Notes: generated from the letters alone by a model not told the origin. A DNA stretch of 24,338 nt from Actinomycetota bacterium (GCA_002697535.1 NZWE01000033.1:16983-41320); one strand, 5' to 3'; shown: positions 3,485-16,563, numbered from the stretch's first letter. Translations and numbers: made by a program.

Positions 3485-3527
3485 AGGGAATTTGATAGTA
3501 ACTCTTTAAAGTGTTGTAAAAGACTCT

Positions 3528-3533
3528 TATAAT
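3528..3533 (+). promoter_or_regulatory. Candidate -10 box for the motor-like cassette
   Basis: Perfect TATAAT 20 nt upstream of ATG 3554; weak -35 TTTAAA at 3505-3510 with 17-nt spacing. Confidence 0.45.
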
Positions 3534-3553: not shown

Positions 3554-4741
3554 ATGAATAAGATGAAAGTAAATGTTTTAGTTATTATTTTTTTGTTGGG
3601 CTTTTCAACAAGTTTATGGGCTGTTGCTGCAGAACCTGATGGAAGTCGTTCAGAATATGATGAAGCTGTTGAATTAGAGTCTCAAGATACTCAAAAAAAG
3701 GATGTTGTTGATACGCCAGAGACTAGTTTAGAACAACCTGTCGAATCGCTTGATACGTTTGATACGGATAATTCAAGCAAAACAGTTGTTAAAGATAATC
3801 GTTCTGATGATGCTACTGTTGATATGATGATGGCAGATGTTGAAGAAGTAAGTGTGGAACTTGATGATGATATTATAGAAGTTTTAGAAGAATATGAGGG
3901 TTTAATTAAACGAAAACAATTTACCAAAGCTAATGAAGTTCTAACTAGTATTCCGATTGGTGCTTTAAATAAAAATCAACGGCGGCAAAAGAAAATGCTT
4001 AATGTTTTTGAGAAAATTGCTGCTGATCAAGCTGAGAATGAGCGACAATTTGGTAAAGATGAATCGTTGGATCAATCTGTTATGAAAACAATAAAACGGT
4101 TACAACGTCAGGCAAAAGTTTATATTTTAGAAGGAAGAACGGTTTTACCGCGTGACTTGTTAATTCAATCTCTTTATTTAGATCGTAAAAATTATTTGTC
4201 GAAACAATTGTTAGATCGATGTTTACAGTTACCTTTAGGATCTTATCAAGTTGAAAATATTGAAAAGAAATATTGGAATAATTCTTTAATAGAATTAAGA
4301 AGTGGGTTTCCTTCAAAATCAGTTGATTCGTTACAAATGTTGGCTAATTTTGATCCTGAAAATCCAATGATTTTTGAACGTATGGGTTCAGCTTTTTATA
4401 TGTCTGGTCAGGTTAAAAAGGCTGTCGAGGCTTGGAAACGTGCTTTATATTTAAGTCCAGAACGAAATGATTTAAAAGAGTTTATTGTTAATGCTGAAAA
4501 AGAAGTGGAGCGACAAGAAAAACTATCAAAAGCTTATTTTGACAGTAAAAAGAAGAAAAGTGATACAGGATCAGTTCAATCTGATGTGCCTATGCAGGTG
4601 TTACGGGTTGTTAATGATTCCAATACAGCCTTTAGTTATGCTCAAGAAGTTCGTCAACAGTTGGGTAAAGGTGTTAATGTGGTTGTAGAAGAACTTGATA
4701 ATGGTAAATGGGCTGTTAAAGTTCCAATCAAAAAAAAATAA
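3554..4741 (+). CDS. Secreted/periplasmic TPR-like protein, first gene of FliFG-MotAB-like cassette; possible SPOR-like C-terminus
   Basis: Signal peptide (MKVNVLVIIFLLGFSTSLWAVA), acidic low-complexity N-terminal region, TPR-like repeat (AFYMSGQVKKAVEAWKRALYLSPER), C-terminal YAQEVRQQLGKGVNVVVEELDNGKWAVKVP. Confidence 0.7.
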   Translation: MNKMKVNVLVIIFLLGFSTSLWAVAAEPDGSRSEYDEAVELESQDTQKKDVVDTPETSLEQPVESLDTFDTDNSSKTVVKDNRSDDATVDMMMADVEEVSVELDDDIIEVLEEYEGLIKRKQFTKANEVLTSIPIGALNKNQRRQKKMLNVFEKIAADQAENERQFGKDESLDQSVMKTIKRLQRQAKVYILEGRTVLPRDLLIQSLYLDRKNYLSKQLLDRCLQLPLGSYQVENIEKKYWNNSLIELRSGFPSKSVDSLQMLANFDPENPMIFERMGSAFYMSGQVKKAVEAWKRALYLSPERNDLKEFIVNAEKEVERQEKLSKAYFDSKKKKSDTGSVQSDVPMQVLRVVNDSNTAFSYAQEVRQQLGKGVNVVVEELDNGKWAVKVPIKKK

Positions 4742-4750
4742 GGGGTTAGT

Positions 4751-6190
4751 ATGAAAAAAATAATTATTTTTATTCTTTGTTTATTATGTTTTTCACAGTG
4801 TTTATTTGCTGCATCAGATCGATATTTAATAGAAGATAATTTAACTGGGATTGCTCAGCAAACATTAGATGCTATGTTTGGAAAAAATAATTTTATTGTT
4901 CGTGTTCAAGTTCAGATGACAGATTCAAAATATAATGTTCGGTATACTAAAGAATCAAATCCGCAACAATCAAAATCAAAATCTAATAAAGAGGGGGAGC
5001 AAGTTTATATTTTACCTGGGGTTCCAGCTTTAAAAAATATTGCACCTGATTCTTTAAAACAGCTTCCTTATGATTCGGTTACAACGTTAACGGAACCTAA
5101 AATTAAACGTATTCTTGTTAAGGTTTTAGTGAATAAGTCTTACCCACGTAGTCAGGCAAAAAAAGCAGAAAAGGCTTTAAAAGATGTTTTAGCGATGAAA
5201 AGTGGTCGGGATAAAATTAAGATGGAATATACAAAATTTTATGAGGATCCTAACGAAAAATCTCAAAATATTACTATTTTACCAGGTCCAGAAAAAATTA
5301 TGTCATTAGGTAATTTGTTTAATGTTCTTATTATTTTATTATTTATTATTTTTATTTTTATTTATAGTCGCTATCAAAAGTTATTATTAGCAAAAGAAGA
5401 TTCATCAGATTCAGGGGGTCCTTCCATTAGTGTTAATCCTAACTTAGAACTTCCAGAAGGCTTAGGTGGAGGAAGTAATGGATCGGATATGAGTATTAAT
5501 ATGAATGCTGATGTTAAACGATATTTTGATTTTGTGACTCAAAATAATATTTCTGATTTTATTTTTCTTATTAAAAGTCAGAACTTAAAACCTGATTATA
5601 TTAGTTTAATTATATCGTTTTTAGCGCCTAATTTATCAGCTAAAATTTTAAATAGTTTGGAACCTAAGGTACAAGCTCAGGTTACAGTTTTATTAACTGA
5701 GCAACGGTTAGGAAAAAAAGATTTGTTGGATAAATTAGAGAAGAAGTTAAAATCTGATGTTGAATGTTTTGTTGGTGGAGATGATAAAGTAGCTGATCTT
5801 TCTGAATCATTATCTAATAAGCAACGAAAAGAAATTACACAATTTTCTAAAAAAATTAATCCAAAAGGGTATAAAAAGTTACGTCCGCATATGGTTTTGT
5901 TTGACGATATTCTTCTTTTAGATGATTCAGAGTTACAATTTGTTTTATCGGATTTAAACTTAGAACAACTTGCTACAGCTTTAGTTGGTGCTGATCAAGG
6001 GTTGTTTTCAAAAATTAATGATAATTTAACAAAAGGTGCCCGAGATATGGTTGGACAGTATTTAGAGCTAAAAAGTGAGTCTTCTAATGAATCTCATATT
6101 GAAAGTGCTCAAGATGCTATAATAAAAGTGTTAAGGAAGTTAGATGCTCAAGGAAAAATTAAATTGGCTGATAAATTAAAGACAGCATAA
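4751..6190 (+). CDS. Chimeric rotor-like protein: signal peptide + FliF C-terminal-like periplasmic part + one TM + FliG middle/C-terminal-like cytoplasmic part
   Basis: Signal peptide; QQTLDAMFGKNNFIVRVQVQM and PKIKRILVKVLVNKSYPRSQAKKAEKALKDVLAMKSGRDKIKMEYTKF resemble the FliF periplasmic C-terminal region; TM LFNVLIILLFIIFIFIYS; PDYISLIISFLAPNLSAKILNSLEPKVQAQVTVLL (FliG-M-like), FVGGDDKVAD (GG linker), MVLFDDILLLDDSELQFVLSDLNLEQLATALVGA...ESAQDAIIKVLRKLDAQGKIKL (FliG-C-like). Confidence 0.85.
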   Translation: MKKIIIFILCLLCFSQCLFAASDRYLIEDNLTGIAQQTLDAMFGKNNFIVRVQVQMTDSKYNVRYTKESNPQQSKSKSNKEGEQVYILPGVPALKNIAPDSLKQLPYDSVTTLTEPKIKRILVKVLVNKSYPRSQAKKAEKALKDVLAMKSGRDKIKMEYTKFYEDPNEKSQNITILPGPEKIMSLGNLFNVLIILLFIIFIFIYSRYQKLLLAKEDSSDSGGPSISVNPNLELPEGLGGGSNGSDMSINMNADVKRYFDFVTQNNISDFIFLIKSQNLKPDYISLIISFLAPNLSAKILNSLEPKVQAQVTVLLTEQRLGKKDLLDKLEKKLKSDVECFVGGDDKVADLSESLSNKQRKEITQFSKKINPKGYKKLRPHMVLFDDILLLDDSELQFVLSDLNLEQLATALVGADQGLFSKINDNLTKGARDMVGQYLELKSESSNESHIESAQDAIIKVLRKLDAQGKIKLADKLKTA

Positions 6191-6199
6191 GGAGATAAT

Positions 6200-6979
6200 A
6201 TGAATTTAAATATTTTTGTAGGTCTTTTTATTGCTTCTTTAGCGATTTATTTAGGAGCTCCTGATGTTCGTAATGATATTACGGTTTATTTGCAGTTTAA
6301 TGCTTTTTTATTGGTTTTTCTGGGTACGTTTGGATCGACGTTAATTAGTACGTCTTTTGCTGATTTTCGTGGGTTATATGTTTTGTTTATTAGTTTGTTT
6401 TTTAGAAAGAAACGATTTTTGTCGCCAGTTGATGCTATTAAAATTATGGTGGATTTATCAGATCAAATTCAACATATTTCTCGACAATCTTTACCTGATA
6501 AAGTCGTTCATTTAAAGGATGCTTATTTGTCTAAAAGTATGGATATGGTTGCAGCAGGTTTGGATAAAGAGTTTGTTTTAGATGCGTTATATACGGATAT
6601 TGATGAACTTAGAAATAGACATTCTAAAAAGATTTCAGCTGTTCGTACTATGGGGTCTTTTGCTCCTATGTTTGGTATGGCTGGTACGGTTATTGGGGTT
6701 ATTCAGGTTTTAAAAAATGTTACTGATATTGAAAATATTGTTGCAGGGATGGCCTTAGCTTTGTTAACTACTTTATATGGTTTAATTTTTACATCTATTT
6801 TATTTCTTCCTTTAGCGAATAAGTTACAAGCTTTAAGTGAAGAAGAAGTGTTATCAAAACAAATTATTAGTCAAGGTACGGAAATGGTGTTAGATAAGGA
6901 AATACCGCTTAAAGTTGAAAAGTATTTAACTGCTTATTTGGAATCGAGTCAGCAAGATAATCTGTTTAAAAAGAAATAG
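6200..6979 (+). CDS. MotA/PomA-like stator protein
   Basis: FAPMFGMAGTVIGVIQVLKNVTDIENIVAGMALALLTTLYGLIFTSILFLPLANKL is a textbook MotA/PomA TM3-TM4 block; SD AAGGAG upstream. Confidence 0.94.
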   Translation: MNLNIFVGLFIASLAIYLGAPDVRNDITVYLQFNAFLLVFLGTFGSTLISTSFADFRGLYVLFISLFFRKKRFLSPVDAIKIMVDLSDQIQHISRQSLPDKVVHLKDAYLSKSMDMVAAGLDKEFVLDALYTDIDELRNRHSKKISAVRTMGSFAPMFGMAGTVIGVIQVLKNVTDIENIVAGMALALLTTLYGLIFTSILFLPLANKLQALSEEEVLSKQIISQGTEMVLDKEIPLKVEKYLTAYLESSQQDNLFKKK

Positions 6980-6988
6980 GGGACCACA

Positions 6989-7684
6989 TTGCCAAAACGT
7001 AAGTTACAAGTTAACAAGCAATCTGGGGGTGATGGAGGTGCTAGTGAGGTTCAAACAATTTATGCTGATTTAGTTACTTTTGTTATGATGTTATTTATTT
7101 TGTTATTTGTTTTGTCTTATAATGACGAGAAATCACAGGACTTTATTACAGAACTACAAATTAAATTTGGTGAAGAAGTAGAAGATAAACAACAAACATT
7201 AACTACGGATGCGTTGTTGGTTAGTAAAATTAATCATTATATTAAAAAAGAAGATTTATCTGAGTATGCTCATGTTGTTGTTGATGAGTATCGGGTTAAA
7301 ATGATTTTAAATCCACCTATTTTGTTTGATAGTGGTAAGGTTGCGATTAAACAAGCTGGTAAAAAAGTTTTAGCGGGGGTTGGTGATATTTTTGATAATG
7401 TTGTTAATCCTTTGGAAATTGAGGGACATACGGATAATGTTCCTATTAATACAGAAGAGTATGCTTCCAATTGGGAATTATCATTTTTTAGAGCTTTTTC
7501 GGTTGTTAAATATTATATTTTTTCACGTGGCTATGATCCTGTTAGAATGACGGCGAAAGGATTTGGTGAATATCGTCCTATTGTTGATAATAGTACAGTT
7601 TTGAATCGTGCTCAAAATCGGCGTATTGAAATTAATGTTATTCGTATTACGGAAACAGATGATTTTGATGATGCGTCTTATTAG
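6989..7684 (+). CDS. MotB-like stator protein with OmpA-type peptidoglycan-binding domain (TTG start)
   Basis: IYADLVTFVMMLFILLFVLS (TM with ion-binding Asp), LFDSGKVAIKQAGKKVLAGVG, LEIEGHTDNVPI, RAFSVVKYYIFSRGYDPVRMTAKGFGEYRPIVDN, NRAQNRRIEINV. Confidence 0.94.
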   Translation: MPKRKLQVNKQSGGDGGASEVQTIYADLVTFVMMLFILLFVLSYNDEKSQDFITELQIKFGEEVEDKQQTLTTDALLVSKINHYIKKEDLSEYAHVVVDEYRVKMILNPPILFDSGKVAIKQAGKKVLAGVGDIFDNVVNPLEIEGHTDNVPINTEEYASNWELSFFRAFSVVKYYIFSRGYDPVRMTAKGFGEYRPIVDNSTVLNRAQNRRIEINVIRITETDDFDDASY

Positions 7685-9231: not shown

Positions 9232-10017
9232 ATGATGTTTACACTGTTTTTTTTCTTCTTAAACATAAATTTTGTGTTTTGGGTTGTATTGTTTTTTGCT
9301 ATATTTTGCTTGATTTGGTATATTAACAATAGTTCTATGGTTTATTCTTTGCTTTATATTGTTGCTTTTTTTACTTTATTTAATGCTTTTGGTTTAGCTA
9401 GTTTCGCTGAAGAAGGTGTGGTTGTATCTGATTCTGTTGTCACCTCTTCTGTTGTTGAGTTAGATATGTCTCATATGGATTTCTTCTCTAAAGACTTAAA
9501 GTCTTTAGAAACTACTTTAGAAGTCAAAAATTATGTGGATAGTCTTGATATTCTTGAAAAAGTTAGAGATAGAATCCAATTTCAGCAAAACCGTGTTATG
9601 TCTTCTTTTTTCCCTTTATCTTTAGAGGGATGGTCTTTAAAAAAGAAGGAAAGTATTATTGATAATGAGCTGGCTAATACAGATTATGGTGTTATTTTTA
9701 CACAAAGTTATTTTAATAAGCAGGGACATACTATCGAAATTAATGTTGTTAATGCTGAAGAATTAATTCGAGATTATAACGATTTATTTAATAACCCTGG
9801 GTTGGTTAGGGGGATGGGGAATACTCATATTATTGATCAAAAGGGATATAAGACAATTGAAACGGTTTTTGATGATGTTAAACACTATGAACAAAATATT
9901 GTTTTATCTAATACTGTTATTATGACTTTAATTGCTATTGGTATTGATGATGTTAGTATTTTGAATAATTTTATTGAATTTGTTGATATTGAAGCGTTAG
10001 ATTTATATTTAAATTAA
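9232..10017 (+). CDS. Hypothetical membrane protein with N-terminal TM segments and soluble C-terminal region
   Basis: Long ORF divergent to rho with hydrophobic N-terminus (FTLFFFFLNINFVFWVVLFFAIFCLIWYI; MVYSLLYIVAFFTLFNAFGLASFA). Confidence 0.7.
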   Translation: MMFTLFFFFLNINFVFWVVLFFAIFCLIWYINNSSMVYSLLYIVAFFTLFNAFGLASFAEEGVVVSDSVVTSSVVELDMSHMDFFSKDLKSLETTLEVKNYVDSLDILEKVRDRIQFQQNRVMSSFFPLSLEGWSLKKKESIIDNELANTDYGVIFTQSYFNKQGHTIEINVVNAEELIRDYNDLFNNPGLVRGMGNTHIIDQKGYKTIETVFDDVKHYEQNIVLSNTVIMTLIAIGIDDVSILNNFIEFVDIEALDLYLN

Positions 10018-14278: not shown

Positions 14279-15796
14279 ATGATTGATTCATCATTTAAGT
14301 CTTTAGGGTCTAGTTTTTTACATGATTTAAGCATGAAATCATGGCAGCGTGGTATTGTTAATTTTTTTTCAGAATCGATTCCATTTTCATTTAGTTCAGG
14401 TAATGAATATGCTGATTTAGTTGTTAAGATGATTCAATTGTTTTCTGATCACTTAAACCAGTCTATTAATATTGTTGAATTTGGTTCGGGTAATGGTGTT
14501 TTTGCTAAGAAATGTATTCAAAAACTAAATGATTCGTCAGTATCCTTTCATTATTTAGTAACGGAAAATATACCTTCTTTAGTTGCTGATTTTGATTCTA
14601 TTCCTATTATTAGTCATTCTAATCATGTGGAATCTAAGTTAGTTGATATTCATAATGTTCAATTAGATCAACCATTTCATGTTGGTATTTTAACGTATTT
14701 ATTGGATACATTTCCTGTTAAAACTTTAGAATTAAGAGAGGGCCAATTATTTGAATGGATGGTGTCTGTTTCAGTTAAAGATGATGCTATTTTACAGTTT
14801 ATGTGTGATGGTGATCTTGTTACTTGGAAAAAAGCTGATATTGATGTTTTTTTATCTAATCCAATTGATGATAATATGTTGCCTGTTTTGTCTCGTATAC
14901 ATGATTGTTTGGATATTGTTTGGGAATCTCAACCTTGTTCAGCCTTAGTGTTAGATTCAACGGGAATTTTGGATGCTTGGTTACAAAAACAATCAAAAAC
15001 AGATCAGGGCTTTTTTAATTTTTCCTCAGCTTGGTGGGAAATGTTGGATTCGTTACAAACACAAATGGCAGATAATTTCATGTTACTTTGTTATGATTTT
15101 TCCTCTATTAATGTGAGCCAATCAAAAGATTATTTAGATAGTTTTGGTCGATTTGGTATTTGTTATTTTTATTCTATTCCATTTTTTTTGCTGCAAGAGT
15201 ATTGTGATCGCCATAACTTACAATTTATATCGTCTCAATTTCCAGATTCTGAAAATCAAATAGGCGTTATAACATACTTAAAAAGTATGACATTTAAACG
15301 TGATGTAACAGCACTTTTAGATACAACAGAACCTGGTCAAGATGTTTATGGTTATACATTAAAGATTCAAGAAGCTAATTCGCTTGATTTATGTTTGGAA
15401 TTTGTGAGGGAGGCTAAACAATCTTTAACACTTGATCAACAATCAGATTATGTTTTTTTATTTTCAATTGCTTCCAAATTGTATGAGTTTGGATGTTATG
15501 ATCAAGTGATACATTATACAGATTTTATTTTGTTTGATTATGGGGGATTTTCTTTAAATGCTATTCTTTTAAAATCTAAAGCATTACGAAAAACAGGGTT
15601 TATTAAAGATGCTTTATCTTTGGTAGATATGGGGCTTAAGCATGCATCTTCTTATGATTTGCTTTATTTAGAAAAGGCTTTTATTGCTCAGGAATTAAAT
15701 CAAATGGATGTTGTTAAAGAGTCTTTAACATTATATTTTGATACGGTTATGGTTAATCCTCAGTGGCAGTTGTTAGATTTATTAAAGTCATTGTAA
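14279..15796 (+). CDS. Putative MidA-like SAM-dependent methyltransferase with C-terminal TPR-like repeats
   Basis: INIVEFGSGNGVFAKKC (SAM motif I-like), LTYLLDTFPVKTLELREGQLFEWMVSVSV (MidA-like NExxDAxPVxR region), C-terminal helical repeats (YDQVIHYTDFILFDYGGFSLNAILLKSKALRKTGFIKDALSL). Confidence 0.6.
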   Translation: MIDSSFKSLGSSFLHDLSMKSWQRGIVNFFSESIPFSFSSGNEYADLVVKMIQLFSDHLNQSINIVEFGSGNGVFAKKCIQKLNDSSVSFHYLVTENIPSLVADFDSIPIISHSNHVESKLVDIHNVQLDQPFHVGILTYLLDTFPVKTLELREGQLFEWMVSVSVKDDAILQFMCDGDLVTWKKADIDVFLSNPIDDNMLPVLSRIHDCLDIVWESQPCSALVLDSTGILDAWLQKQSKTDQGFFNFSSAWWEMLDSLQTQMADNFMLLCYDFSSINVSQSKDYLDSFGRFGICYFYSIPFFLLQEYCDRHNLQFISSQFPDSENQIGVITYLKSMTFKRDVTALLDTTEPGQDVYGYTLKIQEANSLDLCLEFVREAKQSLTLDQQSDYVFLFSIASKLYEFGCYDQVIHYTDFILFDYGGFSLNAILLKSKALRKTGFIKDALSLVDMGLKHASSYDLLYLEKAFIAQELNQMDVVKESLTLYFDTVMVNPQWQLLDLLKSL

Positions 15797-16508: not shown

Positions 16509-16563
16509 GTTTATTTTTATTGAGATTATGTACAACTCCTTGCTTATCGTATAGAATTTGTGT

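Follow-up and report, generated by a model that had tools for sequence, protein, structure and literature searches.

A predicted FliF-FliG fusion beside MotA and MotB: a probable displaced flagellar rotor/stator locus of marine Marinamargulisbacteria

Introduction

The closest precedent for the protein described here is the FliF-FliG fusion of the Chlamydiaceae, a polypeptide of ~330 amino acids (aa) in which an RBM2-like domain and a second RBM-like domain are joined to the middle domain of FliG (FliG-M) only, found in bacteria that carry few flagellar genes and are not flagellated (Bergeron 2016, PMC4768692). When full-length FliF and FliG of Salmonella or Vibrio are fused by engineering, the products form rings (PMC11481574; PDB 8z4d/8z4g). 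Here, we analyze a four-gene cassette at positions 3554-7684 of a 24,338-nucleotide stretch of DNA deposited as Actinomycetota bacterium (GCA_002697535.1, NZWE01000033.1:16983-41320; hereafter the window), which encodes a secreted tetratricopeptide repeat (TPR) protein, a predicted natural FliF-FliG fusion, and the stator proteins MotA and MotB. Because related genomes carry the remaining flagellar genes elsewhere, without visible fliF, fliG or motAB, we conclude that the cassette is probably, at odds of roughly three in four, the displaced flagellar rotor/stator locus of a marine Marinamargulisbacterium, lying on the chromosome apart from its other flagellar genes.

Like the chlamydial protein, the fusion is natural and runs from a shortened FliF periplasmic region through a transmembrane (TM) helix to a FliG-like cytoplasmic domain; unlike it, the protein has an RBM3-type domain, both FliG-M and the C-terminal torque domain (FliG-C), adjacent motAB genes, and C-ring and export-gate genes in relatives. 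With the engineered fusions it shares a covalent 1:1 tie between the MS-ring protein and FliG, whereas those constructs retain RBM1-3 of FliF and the N-terminal domain of FliG (FliG-N), portions in which the present protein carries deletions. Engineered Salmonella fusions of this kind are functional. Measured against the canonical rotor and stator of Salmonella, Vibrio and Clostridium, the cassette has the same RBM3-type domain, TM helix and FliG-M/C with a Gly-Gly hinge, the same MotA prolines, and the same MotB TM aspartate, plug and OmpA-like domain, and genomes related to the window encode FliM, FliN, FliOPQR, FlhBA and FliA. It differs in that FliF and FliG form one polypeptide without RBM1, RBM2, the FliF tail or FliG-N, in that conservation is lost at the FliG torque charges and at MotA R90/E98 and the EHPQR motif is degenerate, and in that the locus is detached from other flagellar genes and begins with a secreted TPR protein.

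Results

Domain composition of the fusion protein

The four open reading frames (ORFs) of the cassette lie on the + strand at 3554-4741 (395 aa), 4751-6190 (479 aa), 6200-6979 (259 aa) and 6989-7684 (231 aa, TTG start), and Pfam, profile and fold evidence agrees with their first-pass annotation as TPR protein, FliF-FliG chimera, MotA and MotB. The second protein was modeled with AlphaFold2 from 39 homologues (mean predicted local distance difference test score, pLDDT, of 73.7). Its N-terminus is a hydrophobic, signal-peptide-like helix (LFA/AS), followed by a periplasmic ring-building domain (aa 22-172; 4814..5266, +), a single TM helix supported by both model and alignment (aa 186-217; 5306..5401, +), a Gly-rich cytoplasmic linker with pLDDT below 50 (aa 218-253; 5402-5509, +), and an all-helical C-terminal part (aa 267-478). 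In the model the periplasmic domain (there aa 25-161) folds as alpha-beta-beta ... beta-beta-alpha-beta, interrupted by an insert that is disordered in the monomer. This insert (aa 68-106, VYILPGVPALKNIAP..LPYDSVTT) is the most conserved part of the fusion family, and residues P89, G90, P92, P106, S109 and T111 in and around it are invariant in the alignment.

The link of the periplasmic domain to FliF was established through fold search and hhalign, because a search of the N-terminal profile against PDB sequences returned only noise; the Pfam family YscJ_FliF_C (PF08345) matched aa 39-93 of the window protein below its cutoff (17.6 vs 23.8). Foldseek matched the domain to about 15 FliF RBM3/S-ring cryo-electron microscopy structures (including 8ftf, 6sd3, 6scn and 7cg7; E ~5e-5, probability 1.0), and hhalign of the periplasmic-domain profile against RBM3 of canonical FliF (residues 236-402) gave a probability of 96.8% (E = 2e-10), results that together show homology with the RBM3/S-ring domain. 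The next Foldseek match was SpoIIIAG of the sporulation ring (5wc3, E = 1e-2). SpoIIIAG resembles the domain in its RBM3-like fold and in an insertion that forms a beta-barrel collar, but its match is far weaker than that of FliF and it has no FliG or stator association.

On the cytoplasmic side, FliG-M (aa about 257-340; 5519..5770, +) scored 27.8 bits against a cutoff of 25 (PF14841) and is followed by an invariant Gly-Gly (G342 G343), and FliG-C (aa 369-472; 5855..6166, +) scored 70 bits against a cutoff of 23.3 (PF01706, E = 2.5e-19). The fusion family profile matched the middle and C-terminal domains of Thermotoga maritima FliG at E = 4e-37; Foldseek placed the fusion model with FliG MC structures at 7e-10; and the FliG-C part superposes on 1qc7 with a root-mean-square deviation of 0.9 Å over 90 columns. 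FliG_N, the binding domain for the FliF tail, was not found by Pfam or in the model, where the TM helix and Gly-rich linker stand instead, and the FliF C-terminal tail is also absent. The FliG equivalog model TIGR00207 scored 78 against a cutoff of 226.7. Judged from sequence and model, gene 2 encodes a FliF(RBM3)-TM-FliG(M+C) fusion that lacks RBM1/RBM2, the FliF tail and FliG-N, and the FliF-like and FliG-like folds first proposed for it are backed by the AlphaFold2 model, Foldseek and hhalign alike.

Flagellar genes elsewhere in related genomes

In a non-marine member of the Margulisiibacteriota (GCA_041650635.1), a fusion homologue of the same architecture (P0110) heads a flagellar operon, followed in order by MotA, MotB, FliK, FlgD-like, FlgE-like, FliM, FliN, FliO-like, FliP, FliQ, FliR, FlhB and FlhA; the fusion holds the fliF-fliG position of this operon. 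Used as a probe, the FlhA of this genome retrieved FlhA of Marinamargulisbacteria amid many Firmicutes-like matches, and a second FlhA search with the marine sequences as query gave over 120 clusters sharing 72-87% identity, which marks FlhA as widespread in this group.

Cassette and flagellar cluster were then found together in three marine relatives. The single-cell genome AAA071-K20 carries fliM-flhG-fliN-fliO-fliP-x-fliQ-fliR-flhB-flhA on QFBU01000009 (L040) and the TPR-fusion-MotA-MotB cassette on QFBU01000140 (L013). On CAZIFG010000005.1 (90,070 bp; L026) the flagellar cluster occupies 1-21 kb and the cassette lies at ~85 kb, and on a 1,921,586-bp European Nucleotide Archive contig (fusion P0043) the cassette lies at ~0.32 Mb and the cluster at ~1.75 Mb; the clusters of both contigs also include fliA. 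Within the marine flagellar clusters examined, as distinct from whole genomes, fliF, fliG and motAB were absent.

Three conserved genes upstream of marine fliM were not recognizable as FliK, FlgD or FlgE. Between a radical-SAM gene and fliM, two unannotated genes, one with a secreted product, are conserved, and some marine clusters have a gene for a secreted protein of ~300-340 aa (weak DUF3370) between fliP and fliQ (L040:6695-7696, L042:6968-7864, L045:6697-7713). It is pure speculation that the fliP-fliQ insert gene and the genes upstream of fliM might be candidate replacements for RBM1/2. In L042 and L045 the flagellar clusters have genes for giant proteins at their flanks.

Distribution and conservation of the locus

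The gene 2 protein has identical copies in marine metagenomes, those of Tara Oceans among them, on contigs as long as 81.5 kb. We collected 51 full-length homologues (35-100% identity, 467-500 aa), and those that are named all come from Candidatus Marinamargulisbacteria single-cell genomes or Margulisiibacteriota metagenome-assembled genomes (MAGs), with AG-333-B06, SP4154 and SP317 as the closest relatives (75-80% identity). By these sequence relationships the window is assigned to marine Candidatus Marinamargulisbacteria. When each GTDB species was scanned through one genome, 26 related loci were detected, nearly all labelled Marinamargulisbacteria and a few labelled Rickettsiales or Actinomycetota with the same synteny. 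Marinamargulisbacteria-type loci stand in records titled Rickettsiales, Actinomycetota/Actinobacteria and even Thermoproteota (L014, L015, L016 and L026; FlhA P0361, P0403 and P0422), labels that likely reflect taxonomic misassignment or bin contamination.

The TPR gene lies directly upstream of the fusion gene in all loci (26/26), with hemL upstream in most and rho nearby. Conservation of the four-gene order across relatives, which the first-pass annotation had raised, held for this first pair and only partly for the second, MotA and MotB directly following the fusion gene in ~16 of the 26 loci. Since the TPR-fusion pair is present in every locus and MotAB in about 16, the TPR protein and the fusion protein therefore form the invariant core.

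A search of 1.84 billion representative proteins with the periplasmic-domain profile returned only 120 at E ≤ 0.001; nearly all measure 460-510 aa and carry the domain at residues 25-175. Among 45 sequences scanned with Pfam (44 distant members plus the window protein), FliG_C was detected in 41, FliG_M in 39 and YscJ_FliF_C in 28; some distant members have extra C-terminal TPRs, and one match in the profile search is a genuine FliF, which provides a link at the sequence level. Where distant members bear a name, they belong to other Margulisiibacteriota (GWD2_39_127) or to Elusimicrobiota, and the family also occurs in unclassified lineages. A literature search on Marinamargulisbacteria, Termititenax, Margulisbacteria flagella, and non-flagellar FliG with MotAB found no paper describing the locus or the family.

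The surroundings of the distant homologues vary. In Margulisbacteria GWD2_39_127 (Riflemargulisbacterium; L035/L036:9216-21650), a 549-aa fusion homologue has a CheY-like response regulator upstream and, downstream, a further FliG_C domain in a protein of 225 aa, a protein of 197 aa and a beta-propeller protein of >3,722 aa. The TPR-fusion-MotA-MotB order also occurs outside Margulisbacteria, in L037:1-16306 (GCA_002412545.1) and in an Elusimicrobiota MAG (L038:7483-14261). In the former locus a gene for a 14,454-aa protein lies upstream, the fusion bears additional C-terminal TPRs, and an 800-aa protein without assignment, flbD and two OmpA/MotB genes are also encoded; the latter encodes a TPR+LysM protein along with two MotB paralogues, again with rho nearby.

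The stator genes

The third gene (6200..6979, +) encodes a MotA stator subunit of 259 aa, with MotA_ExbB at aa 105-219 (nt 6512-6856; E = 1e-26). Its best NCBIfam matches were flagellar MotA/MotP/PomA families (1e-39 to 1e-44, all below equivalog cutoffs), compared with ~1e-6 for ExbB/TolQ, and its best PDB matches were Clostridium sporogenes MotA in the FliG-bound 8ucs complex (3e-33) and PomA (2e-27). The equivalents of P173 and P222 are retained in the alignment. The references for such comparisons were Escherichia coli FliG and MotA, cross-checked against PDB alignments (8ucs for MotA), and the T. maritima FliG sequence as given by the profile match.

The fourth gene (6989..7684, +) starts with TTG and encodes a MotB stator subunit of 231 aa (MotB_plug 26.8 vs 24; OmpA E = 9e-14). 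A conserved Asp27 (nt 7067-7069) lies in its TM helix within YADLVTF, aligned to FSDTITL, and the protein includes a plug region (aa 21-57; nt 7049-7159) and an OmpA-like peptidoglycan-binding domain (aa 112-211; nt 7322-7621). It matched MotB of 8ucs/6ysf at 5e-33 and MotS/MotD/MotB in NCBIfam.

In two Marinamargulisbacteria loci (L033:11447-12874, on a 1.92-Mb contig, and L034:11447-12874, on a 426-kb contig), the motA reading frame continues into motB without an intervening stop. The ORF of L034 encodes a full 475-aa MotA-MotB polypeptide, and that of L033 has a frameshift inside the MotB part and ends at 400 aa. The junction is either a natural fusion, which would be hard to reconcile with a 5:2 stator stoichiometry, or a reproducible nanopore-plus-pilon homopolymer error.

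The secreted TPR protein

Gene 1 (3554..4741, +) encodes a secreted protein of 395 aa, with a signal peptide (aa 1-25) and then an acidic low-complexity region. A helical part with TPRs at about aa 206-304 (nt 4169-4465) is followed by a long helix and, at the C-terminus, by a conserved beta-alpha-beta-beta domain (aa 347-391; nt 4592-4726). Pfam matches to TPR_2, TPR_11 and TPR_1 were sub-threshold, with MamA-like matches in Pfam/NCBIfam, and the family profile matched consensus TPR proteins at E = 6e-33. A single-sequence AlphaFold2 model was confident at aa 260-395 only, and the fold search with it returned generic TPR matches only. A SPOR-like identity, suspected for the C-terminal domain, was not borne out by Pfam.

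Given where gene 1 lies, the repeats in its product and its strict synteny with the fusion gene, we infer that the TPR protein, with its small beta-alpha-beta-beta domain, may act as a periplasmic scaffold that positions or stabilizes the stators or the ring. Periplasmic TPR/Sel1-like scaffolds of stators or rings are known in Campylobacter PflB, Vibrio MotX and the spirochaete collar protein FlcA. The likeness to gene 1 lies in secretion, in the repeats and in being encoded alongside stators or acting on them, an analogy of role rather than a demonstrated sequence relationship.

Locus layout and neighborhood

The first-pass annotation had described four same-strand genes at 9-nt spacing, and the ORF coordinates bear this out, with gaps at 4742-4750, 6191-6199 and 6980-6988. 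Each spacer (TAAGGGGTTAGTATG, TAAGGAGATAATATG and TAGGGGACCACATTG) holds the upstream stop codon and then a Shine-Dalgarno-like element (GGGG/GGAG/GGGA) placed 4-5 nt ahead of the next start, a layout that would fit translational coupling of the four genes on one transcript. Orthologous loci do not keep the spacing of exactly 9-9-9 and have 2/10/9 nt or small overlaps. A sigma-70-like promoter candidate, TTTAAA-17-TATAAT (3505..3533, +; 10/12 matches), lies 21 nt upstream of gene 1; because sites of this type are scarcer across the region than in shuffled controls, it is a candidate only.

The cassette is flanked upstream by hemC, hemA and hemL and downstream by rho, a 261-aa membrane protein gene, tRNA-Thr and tuf; the window (G+C ~32%) further encodes a FAD oxidase, NadA, SOD and a SOUL heme-binding protein, besides several proteins without annotation. 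ORF listing and domain scans found no further flagellar or chemotaxis gene in the 24 kb window, in agreement with the initial description of the locus and of its hemL and rho flanks, and an Rfam scan of the window found tRNA-Thr and no other element.

The 261-aa predicted membrane protein beside rho (9232-10017) has no family match, and its position is kept in several related loci (L008, L009, L016, L017, L020, L021). Four further window ORFs (14279-15796, 16558-18411, 20315-21040 and 21413-23416; 505, 617, 241 and 667 aa) gave no or marginal Pfam matches; the 667-aa protein has one TPR, and the 241-aa protein resembles a multi-pass membrane protein. Just left of the window, L001:1-3245 encodes part of the neighborhood as well: a ~1,770-aa protein with no Pfam match, ~5 kb upstream of the cassette and separated from it by heme-biosynthesis genes.

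Discussion

The cassette combines FliF-RBM3, FliG-MC and MotAB homology with conserved synteny and, in relatives, with co-occurrence of export and C-ring genes. If it is a displaced flagellar rotor/stator locus, the gene 2 fusion would replace both FliF and FliG, and these genomes would be expected to hold no separate copy of either. Its N-terminus would be exported by Sec, and the RBM3-type domain would oligomerize into an S-ring/collar-like ring, in which the conserved periplasmic insert plausibly forms a collar, as in FliF and SpoIIIAG. One TM helix and the flexible Gly-rich linker would hold FliG-M and FliG-C on the cytoplasmic face, so that the torque ring is covalently tied 1:1 to the membrane ring and FliG-N and the FliF tail become unnecessary. 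MotA and MotB would form an ion-driven stator (MotA5B2) anchored to peptidoglycan by MotB; ion flow would turn MotA around MotB and so push FliG-C across a rotor-stator contact that has been re-wired. FliM and FliN, encoded far away in the export-gate cluster, would attach to FliG-M and complete the C-ring, and FliPQR, FlhB and FlhA would sit inside the fusion ring.

Several observations weigh against this assignment. RBM1-RBM2 (SctJ-like, PF01514) is absent by Pfam and in the model, the periplasmic part being a single domain of ~150 aa, and in Salmonella RBM1/RBM2 surround the export gate. The FliM-binding motif EHPQR is degenerate (QN..PD, with a 2-residue insertion), and across the family only its E or P is partly kept. 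E. coli FliG K264/R281/D288/D289/R297 align to V/G/Q/Y/none, with Q and Y/F at these sites kept across the family, and MotA R90 and E98 are likewise not conserved (H/variable and P/variable against the E. coli reference). Other charges of the FliG torque helix are kept across the family (K/R at 283, D at 284, E at 291, K at 293) and could serve as an alternative stator interface, and MotA has a conserved basic residue in S[RK]Q.L, about 4 positions past the R90/E98 sites. We considered charge co-variation between the FliG torque helix and MotA in the divergent loci L026 and L031; the L026 helix is more canonical (R..DE) and its MotA arginine is offset by one, and we do not claim such co-variation. 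At the level of the locus, motAB is not adjacent in eight loci (L019, L021, L022, L023, L024, L025, L029, L030), mostly from lake/freshwater or groundwater, where rho or unrelated genes lie next to the fusion, and the GWD2_39_127 homologue has no motAB or flagellar genes within 10 kb and a non-flagellar-looking context. Finally, cassette and flagellar cluster co-occur in relatives whose fusion is 36-46% identical to that of the window, rather than in the window's own genome.

These divergences bear on the idea, favored by the first-pass annotation, of a stand-alone motor. In such a scheme a separate rotary or force-transducing envelope machine would operate beside a conventional flagellum with its own FliF and FliG, which would accommodate the missing RBM1/2, the diverged interface residues and EHPQR motif, and the separation of the cassette from the flagellar cluster on the chromosome in all marine genomes seen. 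Its distant homologues also adjoin giant proteins (14,454 aa in L037; the 3,722+ aa beta-propeller protein in L035), and the Elusimicrobiota MAG has TPR-fusion-MotA-MotB with no flagellar gene within 10 kb. However, the same architecture heads a flagellar operon in GCA_041650635.1, three relatives pair the cassette with a fliM-to-fliA cluster, and none of the flagellar clusters examined has a separate fliF or fliG; these clusters lack motAB as well, which would make the cassette the sole visible stator and rotor. The L037 locus has the flagellar-associated flbD beside motAB, and giant proteins are common in these genomes, including as neighbors of flagellar clusters. We therefore regard a separate machine as unlikely, and its fuller version, in which the TPR protein, chimera and MotAB form an autonomous flagellum-derived device with a minimal ring and a re-wired interface that drives, for example, a giant surface protein, as a shade less probable again. 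The same co-occurrence makes a dispersed piece of an unusual flagellum, originally offered as the alternative, the better reading. The finding named at the outset as decisive against a stand-alone motor, a complete flagellar gene set elsewhere without its own fliF, fliG and motAB, was largely obtained, as export-gate, C-ring and fliA clusters in three relatives, short of the full set and of the window's own genome.

Reduced flagellar gene sets also occur, as in Chlamydiaceae and Buchnera, and the locus might belong to a degenerating flagellum, retained for a purpose other than swimming, for example protein export or envelope anchoring, with neither filament nor rotation. Only export-gate, C-ring and rotor/stator genes were seen, with rod, hook, filament and fliI in no marine locus viewed (loci, not whole genomes, having been scanned), the torque-interface charges are lost, and a non-flagellated organism with a FliF-FliG fusion has a precedent in the Chlamydiaceae (PMC4768692). 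Yet the MotB aspartate, plug and peptidoglycan-binding domain, the MotA prolines and a full FliG-C are kept across orthologues of 35-85% divergence, which speaks for a torque generator that still works and is under selection; regulators of flagellar expression and number, fliA and flhG, are retained, and the non-marine relative has fliK and flgE-like genes. We consider such a remnant very unlikely, the least probable of the explanations weighed here, and favor the displaced rotor/stator locus.

For those scanning genomes, the case carries a caution, in that a detached rotor/stator locus is no evidence for a stand-alone motor. The fusion family is rare, with ~120 representatives among 1.84 billion proteins. 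If the fusion is the sole FliF and FliG of these bacteria, their motor would be built on a ring without RBM1/RBM2 and FliG-N, with an obligatory 1:1 ring-to-rotor stoichiometry, and would work through a rotor-stator interface without the textbook charged residues. If true, this would be a natural experiment on the minimum needed to house the export gate, on the transmission of torque, and on the evolution of the FliF-FliG handshake.

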